Source: an uncultured Acidobacteriota bacterium (GTDB lineage Bacteria; Actinomycetota; Acidimicrobiia; Spongiisociales; ZC4RG35). Taken from it: 64,000 nt of DNA. Under the pieces are notes generated by a model that saw only the letters and a list, made by a program, of their open reading frames with translations, ran no database searches and was not told the DNA's origin. The translations under genes and the position numbers were made by a program. The stretch is taken from assembly GCA_963810465.1 (NCBI GenBank), contig CAWENM010000003.1:128259-192258 (forward strand), in the 5' to 3' direction. Shown piece after piece: positions 29,802 to 31,294 of the stretch; the stretch's first letter is position 1; every line of letters starts with the position of its first letter.

Positions 29802-29874
29802 TCCGCGGTAGCTCAATTGGTAGAGCAGTGGACTGTTAATCCATTGGTTGTAGGTTCGAGTCCTACCCGCGGAG
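29802..29874 (+). tRNA. tRNA-Asn (anticodon GUU)
   Basis: Cloverleaf read by hand. Acceptor TCCGCGG/CCGCGGA, D-arm GCTC/GAGC, anticodon loop CTGTTAA, T-arm GTAGG TTCGAGT CCTAC, discriminator G. CCA not encoded. Confidence 0.93.
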
Positions 29875-30099
29875 CCCGAATTCTGCCCATTGCATGGGGC
29901 CTTCGCTGATGGCGCAAACACACACTTGTTCGGGTGTAGCCAACCTGCAGCCAGCAGGGACGGACGGGCCTAATGCAGCCTCGAAATGTCCATGACGAAT
30001 CGATATCTGACATCCGCAGCGAAGCATCCGCTCAAGGCCTCATTGATCTCATTCGGCTTGATCAACTGATGCTCATTTGCCTCGACCACCTGCACGCGA

Positions 30100-31086
30100 T
30101 CAGCGGTCGATCATCCGTAGGGCAGCTTCGGAGTAACGCTGCCCTTGGATGCTGATCCCTTCGAGCGCCTGGTTGATCATGATCAAGTCATCGGCCGTGA
30201 GCTCGACCTCGACCGCGCCGAGGTTCTCCTCGAGACGGCGCAGCTTCGTGGTCCCGGGGATCGGAACTATCCAGGGCTTGCGACCCAGCAGCCAGGCGAG
30301 GGCGATCTGAGCCGGGGTCACCCGTTTCTGCTCCGCGATCCGCTTCACGAATTCCACCAGCTCCTGGTTCGCTTTTCGGTTCCCTGGGTCGAAGCGGGGG
30401 ACAGTGTTGCGAAAATCGGACTCCACGAAAGTGGTGTCCTCGTCGATTTTGCCGGTGAGAAAGCCCTTCCCCAGGGGACTGAACGGGACGAAACCGATCC
30501 CCAACTCCTCGAGCGTGGGCAGGATCTCTTCCTCGGGCTCCCGCCACCACAGCGAATACTCGCTCTGCAATGCGGTGACGGGCTGTACTGCGTGGGCCCG
30601 GCGAATCGTCATCACGCCCGCCTCGGAAAGGCCGAAATACTTCACCTTCCCTTCGGCGATGAGGTCTTTCACCGTGCCGGCGACATCGTCGATCGACACG
30701 TCGGGGTCGACCCGATGCTGGTAATAGAGGTCGATGTGGTCGGTCCTGAGCCGGCGGAGGGACTCTTCTGTCATCTTCCGGATGTGATCGGGGCGACTGT
30801 TCAACCCCTGTGACTCACCATCCACGAAGCCGAAACCGAACTTCGTGGCGACCACGACCTCGTCCCGGAAGGGGGCGAGAGCCTCGCCGACGACGTCCTC
30901 GTTGGTGAACGGACCGTAGACCTGGGCGGTGTCGAAAAAGGTGACGCCGCGCTCGACCGCGGAACGGATCACTTCGATTGCATGCTCCCGGTCTGAGGGC
31001 ACTCCATAGCTTTGGCTAAGACCCATGCAGCCGTAGCCCAGGGCCGAGACCTCGAGACCGCTCGTTCCCAATGTGCGTGCGTCCAT
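30100..31086 (-). CDS. aldo/keto reductase family oxidoreductase
   Basis: AKR motifs ([30 protein letters not shown]). Start at internal [11 protein letters not shown]. Confidence 0.88.
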
Positions 31087-31247
31087 CTTTCCTTCTTCGT
31101 TCTCACGTTCCAGCCGGCTGAATGTGTAGCCATTTGTGTAGCCGTACGTACCCGGACACGCCAACACCAGACATCACGACTGATCGAAATTCGTAGACAG
31201 GACAGCATCAAACAGCACCGAGCGGGACTGGACGGACGGGGCGGGCG

Positions 31248-31294
31248 GGACTGTTAATCCATTGGTTGTAGGTTCGAGTCCTACCCGCGGAGCC
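31248..31294 (+). repeat. 47-nt direct repeat of the tRNA-Asn 3' half (anticodon loop to acceptor end): att-site-like footprint
   Basis: Identical to 29830-29876 (GGACTGTTAATCCATTGGTTGTAGGTTCGAGTCCTACCCGCGGAGCC). Confidence 0.85.

Follow-up and report, generated by a model that had tools for sequence, protein, structure and literature searches.

Integration at tRNA genes, and decay of the integrated DNA into remnants flanked by att sites, are textbook events. A crossover in the anticodon loop followed by a block of identity up to the tRNA 3' end is reportedly a recognized sublocation class of tyrosine integrases, as Williams is said to have set out in 2002. Cargo also moves in small units. 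In integrons the extra cassettes adjoin the attachment site, and pdif modules and integrative mobile elements exploiting Xer (IMEX) are cargo modules bounded by recombination sites and moved by a recombinase that they do not encode, the host XerC/D, the sites being 28 bp long and dif-like and the recombinases housekeeping Xer enzymes. For streptococcal elements that are integrative and conjugative (ICEs) and those that are integrative and mobilizable (IMEs), cis-mobilizable elements (CIMEs) have been described that keep attL and attR and lack integration and transfer genes, and tandem accretion occurs when an incoming element integrates at the att site that holds the intact gene end, with att copies separating the elements (PMC5704250). 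In the tycheposon islands of Prochlorococcus, new elements at the tRNA push older ones inward and partial tRNAs mark the joints; the islands carry adaptive accessory cargo in which close cells differ, integrase-less pieces are described as degenerate remnants, and what defines a tycheposon is a tyrosine recombinase of its own, usually along with a replication module (bioRxiv 10.1101/2020.12.28.424599). Here we describe a 64-kb stretch of DNA (the window, always meant at its full length; L001, L002 and so on denote the loci and contigs compared with it) in which an aldo-keto reductase (AKR) gene lies between an intact tRNA-Asn gene and a partial copy of it. We conclude that positions 29877-31247 are probably a 1,371-bp non-autonomous cassette, made of an attP site plus cargo, that was inserted site-specifically into tRNA-Asn and is most likely mobilized in trans.

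We examined the tRNA gene and its repeat. ARAGORN called tRNA-Asn(gtt) at 29801-29877 as the sole tRNA in the window, and the Rfam tRNA model RF00005 matched 29802-29874 at 75.4 bits. The 47-mer GGACTGTTAATCCATTGGTTGTAGGTTCGAGTCCTACCCGCGGAGCC was found at 29830-29876 and 31248-31294, in exact copies of direct orientation, and these were its two occurrences in the window; no third copy of the 47-mer or of its T-arm half was detected at up to 3 mismatches across the window, and 0 of 100 shuffles gave a match. The first copy has its left end in the anticodon stem, on the 5' strand, and takes in the anticodon loop, the variable loop, the T arm, the 3' strand of the acceptor stem and the discriminator base, with 2 nt beyond. 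Identity between the copies ends on the left at t/g (29829 versus 31247) and on the right at c/t (29877 versus 31295). In other element types at tRNA-Asn the left identity edge lies inside GGACTG/CTGTTAA, that is, in the anticodon stem-loop, and a crossover would be expected there. Neither ARAGORN nor Rfam called a tRNA at the second copy; ARAGORN does call a second tRNA-Asn at a partial copy in L025. An earlier note on this DNA, made from the letters alone, had proposed an intact tRNA-Asn(GUU) with an exact 47-nt copy downstream, and ARAGORN, Rfam and the repeat search agree with it. The note had also placed a single minus-strand AKR gene between the copies, and this gene (PF00248, E 8.6e-75) is the only credible one there.

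Comparison with relatives revealed the uninterrupted site. Window positions 31248-31389 align to 11486-11622 of L002 with 88.7% identity, and the homologue of 31295-31389 stands directly after the tRNA in L002, so that with regard to the AKR cassette L002 is an empty site. When all post-core flanks were compared with one another, the window/L002 pair was recovered independently and further pairs came up. The flank past the fourth core of L054 is 99% identical to the flank past the tRNA of L022, indicating that three cassettes are present in L054 and absent in L022, and the flank past the second core of L016 matches the post-tRNA flank of L024 and L055. Shared synteny of the AKR, which the earlier note had named as speaking against a mobile footprint, was not seen when relatives were compared at the tRNA-Asn locus: no homologue of the AKR cargo DNA was found in 101 related loci (L001-L101). 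The attL/attR-like geometry that had been read from the repeat corresponds to a genuine att pair at the tRNA 3' end, and the AKR segment is very probably a discrete cassette inserted by site-specific recombination into tRNA-Asn.

The core copies are the core of a larger conserved module of ~172 nt, arm plus core, that recurs in many related genomes, a fact that the earlier note had missed. In an alignment of 30 distinct arm-plus-core copies, the mean column identity was 87%, and 130 of the 173 columns reached at least 90%. The arm was initially recognized in 18 cassettes, and most partial tRNA copies are preceded by it. The right, P-like arm contains TGTAGCC twice (31125-31131 and 31137-31143) and two ~25-nt GACAGGACA.CACCA.ACA repeats, and its last part, GGACTGGACGGACGG..GGGCG, directly abuts the core. 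Sequences 5' of the first TGTAGCC are unrelated among the copies, except for ~11 nt (cgcacttcgtg-like) in a subset, and the outer edge of the arm is therefore fairly sharp. On the other side of the cassette, the left, P'-like arm starts with TTCTGCCC right after the core and carries TGTAGCC (29935-29941) and cTGCAGCC (29945-29952) ~58 nt from the core, with a third TGCAGCC at 29974-29980; many other cassettes likewise have such a pair at their left ends, and the left-end alignment of cassettes contains the conserved block ..TGTTC..gTGTAGCCaat.CTGTAGCC. Of 112 core copies, 21 have a TGTAGCC-like pair in the 130 nt downstream of them, as opposed to 0.9% of random segments. Judged by this anatomy, the arms are likely to be binding sites for recombination proteins. 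A further idea was that arms are truncated at a common point because the CGGGACTG pseudo-core, 28 nt upstream of the core, acts as another recombination site; this was rejected because the truncated arms of L001, L121 and L123 end at different positions.

We investigated how widely such cassettes occur. Anchoring on RpoD gave 80 species-representative loci, all from soil or sediment Acidimicrobiia metagenome-assembled genomes (MAGs), and in many of them the tRNA-Asn 3' half recurs downstream of the tRNA as 2-4 direct copies, 0.9-8 kb apart. The tRNA is present in 64 of the 80 loci, 38 of which extend at least 2 kb downstream of it; partial tRNA copies (1-3 each) were found in 19 of these 38 and arm-type copies in 13. 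Successive cores enclose cassettes of 0.86-6.6 kb with 1-6 genes in either orientation and unrelated cargo, and cassettes down to 0.86 kb keep the arm. Among the cargo are extracytoplasmic function (ECF) sigma factors with putative anti-sigma factors, a beta-lactamase-fold protein, adenylate cyclases, DUF4386, a luciferase-like monooxygenase, an NmrA-like reductase and small secreted proteins. Some cargo recurs at different array positions between genomes; for example, cargo of cassette 1 of L003 is found again in cassette 2 of L045. In the species set an array holds 3 arm-type cassettes at most, and in a strain variant at least 4. Long contigs with arrays are ENA ERZ25039541 contig_1558 (950 kb), CAVQFU010000007.1, CAWHEU010000022.1 and CAVVMG010000001.1 (2.64 Mb); the complete chromosome OZ244163.1 (2.3 Mb) showed none within the sampled region. 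A 23-nt arm pattern retrieved 19 further copies from JGI metagenome contigs. The pattern starts ~112 nt upstream of the core in 17 of the 19, where the contig is long enough, the copy in L084 has a truncated arm and no detectable core, and copies with flanks lie again in the rpoD/pheA neighborhood. Contig ends were also recorded: 16 of the 64 contigs that reach tRNA-Asn end within 400 nt past it, and another 16 loci stop before the tRNA. This clustering indicates that tRNA-Asn is a systematic assembly breakpoint in the short-read MAGs of the clade.

Differences were also found between nearly identical strains. L103 has the layout of the window at 98.8% identity. L102, which is 99.94% identical to the window upstream and 99.6% downstream, carries an extra 909-bp cassette, ending in its own arm copy, and an extra core exactly at the tRNA. 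L122 shows the same layout with one extra 909-bp cassette, and L102 and L122 are 99.5-99.9% identical to the window. L123, with 99.8% identity over the AKR segment and the following segment with a CAP-domain gene, contains at least 3 further cassettes on the tRNA side: an abhydrolase cassette, an unnamed one and a cyclase cassette common to L001 and L084. The extra cassettes of this strain series are always tRNA-proximal, as serial integration at an intact tRNA predicts. The 909-bp cassette corresponds to cassette 1 of L007, with 92.2% identity over all 909 nt compared with ~87% in flanking housekeeping DNA, and is bounded by cores in both genomes.

The tRNA alleles in the array of L054 were examined as well. 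The partial copy at 12135-12181 of L054 has the tRNA-Asn allele of the L019/L028 lineage, with a GAAGG variable loop and a GGAGG/CCTCC T stem in which the changes are compensatory, unlike L054's own tRNA, which has the common allele. The presence of a foreign-lineage allele indicates that partial copies record exchange between lineages, not local duplication, and the mismatch would imply that the 3' half of the resident tRNA is replaced at each integration.

Phage attachment sites with the same core were found in IMG/VR. The viral contigs L081 and L082 contain the exact 47-mer, without the 5' half of the tRNA, 390-920 nt from a gene for a 380-aa tyrosine integrase (PF00589), and phage genes (such as those for a Clp-type prohead protease and Dam) follow the 47-mer; these features together identify a phage attP. 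A third phage lineage, L113/L114, has a 68% identical integrase and the same core. All three lineages carry a direct-repeat pair of TGTAAC[GC], 12 nt apart, ~108 nt upstream of the core, with other repeats between this pair and the core, and TGTAAC-type repeats 51-62 nt downstream of it, one in L082 and two in L081 and L113/L114. The TGTAGCC pairs of the cassettes lie at about -123 and +58 relative to the core. When excised cassettes were reconstructed as right arm, core and left arm and aligned by MAFFT, their TGTAGCC pairs fell onto the TGTAAC pairs of the phages, with a difference of one to two bases between the two repeats. The phage integrase family carries PF14657/PF14659 arm-DNA-binding and SAM-like domains, and the cassette arms appear to have the anatomy of the arm-type integrase sites of this clade. 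Related integrases adjoin cores derived from other tRNAs: at ~2260-2330 of L115/L116 and ~2630-2657 of L117, such cores lie beside integrases that are 57-58% identical to the tRNA-Asn phage integrase. The core of L115/L116 has the anticodon TCT (Arg), with the TGTAAC pair kept, and that of L117 has CAT (Met), with the contig ending inside the core. This suggests an integrase clade that may combine conserved arm recognition with swappable core specificity.

We searched for the enzyme that acts on the TGTAGCC arms. No tyrosine recombinase was detected in the 64-kb window: tblastn with six integrases gave no match, and a family hidden Markov model (HMM) of 80 members, run unfiltered (--max) against all six-frame open reading frames (ORFs) of the window, reached a best E value of 0.12. 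The earlier note had likewise reported no integrase. The arm-type cassettes contain no recombinase, integrase fragment or replication gene. Integrases do lie directly downstream of tRNA-Asn in L009, L012, L014, L023, L035, L049, L050 and L070. The elements of L012, L014, L050 and L070 were tried as an obvious helper and rejected, as they share a different arm among themselves. A 2.45-kb mini-element at tRNA-Asn was found in L017 (3875-6323) and L093 (1-2135), between the tRNA and a TGTAGCC-arm cassette. It encodes a 397-aa XerC/D-like tyrosine recombinase (PF00589 plus PF02899) together with two small ORFs. The final 12 nt of the element ahead of the core (ACGGTGTGGGCG) agree with the cassette arm, which weakly suggests that the element might be a candidate helper.

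The cargo gene was examined next to its relatives elsewhere. The match of the AKR to PF00248 covers profile positions 2-290 out of 291; the true start codon of the gene is the ATG at 31086-31084, preceded by the Shine-Dalgarno sequence GAAGGAAAG, its stop is at 30100-30102, and the catalytic Asp-Tyr-Lys-His motifs are legible in the sequence. An identical protein was found only on the strain-variant contigs L102 and L103, with a 99% version on L122 and L123. Homologues of 80-94% identity occur elsewhere on the long contigs to which L001, L002, L003, L006, L025, L045 and L102 belong. A check of composition, as the earlier note had advised, did not set the cassette apart: its GC content is 0.58-0.63 compared with 0.62-0.65 in the flanks, and the skew is without anomaly. 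Base composition is thus a poor discriminator for this cassette, and with AKR paralogues common in the lineage the cargo is not foreign to the clade.

The closest non-identical AKR belongs to a second tRNA-anchored island. In L121 (ENA ERZ25039494 contig_11775, reverse complement 2593-7390), between Ku and thrC-rho, an AKR is encoded with 94% protein identity and 92.8% DNA identity over window positions 30083-31213. It keeps the distal 92 nt of the TGTAGCC arm, without the core-proximal part of the arm and without the tRNA-Asn core. The locus is an island anchored at tRNA-Arg(CCG). Its far border, 4.7 kb downstream, is a partial copy of the tRNA-Arg(CCG) 3' half in direct orientation with one 1-nt indel, and the island contains RibD_C, EamA, two genes of unknown function and the 94%-identical AKR. 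A tRNA 3'-half fragment at ~5735-5785 of L121 was read as tRNA-Arg(CCU)-like. The occurrence of the AKR module in two tRNA-anchored islands indicates that it has moved between them.

These observations can be arranged into a mechanism. The circular form of a cassette would carry a complete attP, in which the P arm (~125 nt) and the P' arm enclose a core of 45-47 nt that is identical with the 3' half of the tRNA. Recombination of the tyrosine-recombinase type between the circle and the segment of tRNA-Asn from the anticodon loop to the 3' end would restore an intact tRNA at attL and displace the partial copy to attR, and this displaced copy would account for the 47-nt direct repeat. Successive cassettes stack head-to-tail at tRNA-Asn in many soil Acidimicrobiia. 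The arms would bind an integrase or accessory proteins, and the work would be done by a helper integrase supplied in trans, phage-borne or encoded elsewhere in the genome, in a process that may still be active. Since the arms mirror the attP layout of phages that have the same core and arm-binding integrases, mobilization in trans by such an integrase appears most likely. That the family is being mobilized in this way today is a view towards which we lean slightly. The features of the cassette are listed in Table 1.

Table 1. Features of the cassette and its insertion site in the window
Feature	Position	Strand	Basis or remark
Intact tRNA-Asn(GTT) gene	29802..29874	+	ARAGORN, Rfam RF00005; 3' part is the attL core; attB target of each new insertion
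Core copy 1 (attL core)	29830..29876	+	Exact 47-nt direct repeat
Left (P'-like) arm	29877..29985	+	Left-end alignment of cassettes
Aldo-keto reductase cargo, intact, 328 aa	30100..31086	-	PF00248, translation
Right (P-like) arm, ~125 nt	31122..31247	+	30 aligned arm-plus-core copies
Core copy 2 (attR core)	31248..31294	+	Partial tRNA-Asn without the 5' half
Pre-insertion flank	31295..31389	+	In L002 directly 3' of the tRNA

The earlier note had called the segment a remnant or stranded cargo, and a decay remnant is a rival to the mobile cassette: a former prophage or ICE at tRNA-Asn would have lost its integrase and backbone and left the AKR between fossil att sites. There is a documented CIME pathway of integration and later decay in which attL and attR are retained (PMC5704250), tRNA-Asn does serve as a site for integrase-bearing elements and phages, truncated arms at some loci show that decay happens, and the scans of IMG/VR and metagenomes with arm patterns did not find a helper integrase. 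Independent deletions, however, predict heterogeneous ends and a shared backbone, whereas at least 30 cassettes share the ~125-nt arm and its outer boundary and nothing else, even at 0.86 kb, and over their 47 nt the two cores in the window do not differ. Strains of 99.5-99.8% identity also differ in their cassettes, always on the tRNA side, and the 909-bp cassette is discrete in the more distant genome L007 with an identity above that of its flanks. The wording of the earlier note therefore understated a cassette that keeps both attP-like arms and belongs to a polymorphic family; strain polymorphism and uniform arms fit a non-autonomous mobile cassette better than random decay, and we regard an inert remnant as unlikely. 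The arm and the partial tRNA could instead form a functional RNA or transcription module, such as a tRNA-like processing signal, an insulator or terminator, or a promoter for the cargo, and would then travel with genes on that account and not as a recombination site. The AKR start codon is 36 nt from the arm, so that the AKR promoter must lie in or beyond it, and arm plus core are strongly conserved. The conservation does not look like that of an RNA: RNAalifold on the 30 distinct copies gave a covariation term of +0.36 and a compensatory change in 1 of 37 predicted pairs, the fold of the junction-module alignment contained no supported hairpin besides the tRNA T arm, and Rfam matched nothing in the window other than the true tRNA. 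A promoter/terminator scan of the cassette, in itself uninformative, showed no promoter-like site. With cargo in either orientation relative to the arm, and the module always in phase with the tRNA-Asn 3' half at the tRNA-Asn locus, such a function is very improbable.

Homologous recombination alone is the other rival. The cassettes would be old, and their present gain, loss and exchange would be RecA-dependent, by way of the core-plus-arm junctions and rpoD/pheA, with no site-specific recombinase acting now. Several observations that speak for it also weigh against mobilization in trans. The ~172-nt junction modules are 80-93% identical and include a 47-nt exact core, which suffices for deletion and allelic replacement, and cassette loss and exchange between strains could proceed by homologous recombination between junction modules of 47-172 nt without an integrase. 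The tRNA-proximal nesting of the strain series fits equally well with deletions running from the tRNA core to an internal one. The search for an integrase linked to TGTAGCC arms was negative: the TGTAGCC arm is absent from IMG/VR, where two exact arm patterns and a tolerant arm-pair-plus-core pattern gave only TGTAAC phages or nothing; the relatives of the phage integrase in IMG/VR and the protein database have TGTAAC arms or belong to elements at other tRNAs; all 19 metagenome arm hits are integrase-less chromosomal copies; and the integrases adjoining tRNA-Asn in relatives have different arms. A recognizable P' pair follows only about a fifth of the core copies and is lacking in the very 909-bp cassette that differs between strains, decay has cut off the arms of L001, L121 and L123 at differing points, and a circular junction or an empty site within the population was not directly observed. 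Homologous recombination may account for losses and some exchanges and may be the driver today, but alone it leaves unexplained why arms laid out like a phage attP, with conserved internal repeats, stand beside unrelated cargo, and how cassettes with new cargo and the same ends originate; flanking homology, moreover, cannot account for the AKR module in the tRNA-Arg(CCG) island of L121. As a full account it is quite unlikely, and insertion of an attP-plus-cargo cassette with mobilization in trans remains the reading that we prefer.

We compared the cassettes with the described systems. Of the features of a tRNA-targeting integrative element, the direct repeat with an intact tRNA and the empty site in relatives were found, and an element-encoded integrase was not. 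The window cassette falls under the definition of a CIME, being flanked by attL and attR, including the tRNA 3' end, without integration or transfer genes. CIMEs, however, have been described as products of ICE or IME decay, as a rule one at each site and with backbone remnants, whereas here at least 30 very small cassettes from many species of one actinobacterial class share only attP-like arms, with no conjugative partner in evidence. The arm-type cassettes contain no backbone or integrase fragments and have only the arms in common, and truncated arms elsewhere show some decay. The tandem elements at a tRNA, separated by partial tRNA copies (2-4 core copies in 19 of 38 species loci), resemble tycheposons, but the arm-type cassettes have uniform, complete ends without a recombinase or replication gene.

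There is also a likeness to the attP of temperate actinophages whose tyrosine integrases bind arm sites (lambda or L5 type), represented here by L081, L082 and L113/L114. The cassette has a core identical to attB with arm motifs on both sides at set distances, which are the marks of a phage-type attP: an identical 47-nt core, paired direct repeats ~110-125 nt upstream and repeats ~50-62 nt downstream. It differs from the phage sites in that the repeat is TGTAGCC instead of TGTAAC[GC], that 1-6 cellular-type genes are attached instead of a phage genome, and that no integrase or excisionase adjoins it; its arms are putative binding sites. Integron cassettes are similar in being small recombinase-free cargo with a recombination site, arrayed at one chromosomal attachment point, and extra cassettes here adjoin that point as they do in integrons. 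The junction, however, is made of direct repeats and a tRNA 3' half instead of an imperfect palindrome of the attC type, the array starts at tRNA-Asn downstream of rpoD without an adjacent intI/attI/Pc platform, and a cassette may hold several genes in either orientation and has a double-stranded attP-like site. In contrast to pdif modules and IMEX, the cassettes have a tRNA-derived 47-nt core and the long arms typical of heteromorphic (phage-type) integrase sites. No description of a uniform family of miniature recombinase-free cassettes with a complete phage-like attP, stacked at one tRNA across species, was found in the open-access literature.

The surroundings of the array were also examined. 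In the window, as in 64 of the 80 related loci, the tRNA-Asn gene directly follows dnaG-rpoD. Upstream, the window contains a housekeeping block of era, recO, uppS, glyS, yceI, dnaG, rpoD and a small membrane protein gene; downstream are genes for a CAP-domain protein, small ORFs, a lumazine-binding-like protein, an M23 peptidase, a pheA/DAHP-synthase fusion and leu genes. The fusion is a single 677-aa ORF on the plus strand (36787-38820) made of CM_2 chorismate mutase, prephenate dehydratase, ACT and DAHP_synth_1. It unites the first step and late steps in the synthesis of aromatic amino acids, is 72-99% conserved in relatives and forms the far, stable border of the variable region. The interval from the tRNA to this gene ranges among relatives from 0.9 kb (L031) to >10 kb. 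The earlier note had regarded 31.3-36.6 kb as accessory. The DNA from the tRNA to pheA is indeed variable among relatives, but the M23 peptidase and lumazine-binding genes are conserved in the closer relatives L002 and L005-L007, and only part of the region is strain-variable.

The segment with the CAP-domain gene (31295-32995) shares its first ~95 nt with the first, non-arm element of L002, and the remaining content differs. No right-hand att copy for this segment (31.3-32.9 kb) was found in the window at up to 3 mismatches. L002 carries a 4-mismatch partial copy at the equivalent place, just before o206, and in L011 the CAP gene stands directly after the tRNA cores. The CAP segment may be an older element of another family whose attR has been lost. 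At 11154-11247 of L011, a second 47-nt copy, with 4 mismatches, comes right after the tRNA-Asn core without any spacer, and the CAP gene is next; simple site-specific recombination should not leave such a tandem core without a cassette. Farther downstream are two direct repeats of ~93 nt (34364-34457 and 34862-34954) with 89-95% identity, each comprising a promoter-like TTGACG..17..TATAGT, a strong hairpin (GAAGCCCC...GGGGCTTC) and a T-rich tail, in the manner of what may be an attenuator or the gene of a small RNA. L001, L002 and L005 have both copies, L006 and L007 only one. No Rfam family was found for them; the best match, sar at 19 bits, is far under threshold. The names of the MAGs are a further point. 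The Microflora Danica MAGs L001-L003, L005-L007, L022, L023, L025, L045 and L054 are titled "uncultured Acidobacteriota bacterium", their RpoD proteins are 89-99% identical to that of the window, and the relatives nearest to them in that search all have titles naming Acidimicrobiia or Actinomycetota. The Acidobacteriota title is probably a labeling error.

The array has practical consequences. Its repeats break assemblies, and the partial tRNA copies are open to misannotation. The conserved arm offers a simple sequence tag for strain-variable genes in metagenomes, and the core-plus-arm design, together with the phage integrase family of the same core, is a starting point for integration vectors for Acidimicrobiia. 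If the cassettes are mobilized in trans, they would be to integrases what miniature inverted-repeat transposable elements (MITEs) are to transposases. One could go further and suppose, tentatively and against our own leaning, that soil Acidimicrobiia possess an integron-like gene capture built from phage parts, in which an arm-binding tyrosine integrase acting in trans would insert attP-plus-cargo cassettes serially at tRNA-Asn, and related modules at further tRNAs, tRNA-Arg among them; the arrays would turn over between strains that are >99.5% identical and would be a main route of accessory-gene flux in the clade. Mobilization in trans would in any case give this abundant uncultured soil lineage cheap swaps of single accessory genes, among them reductases, ECF sigma/anti-sigma pairs, cyclases and hydrolases.

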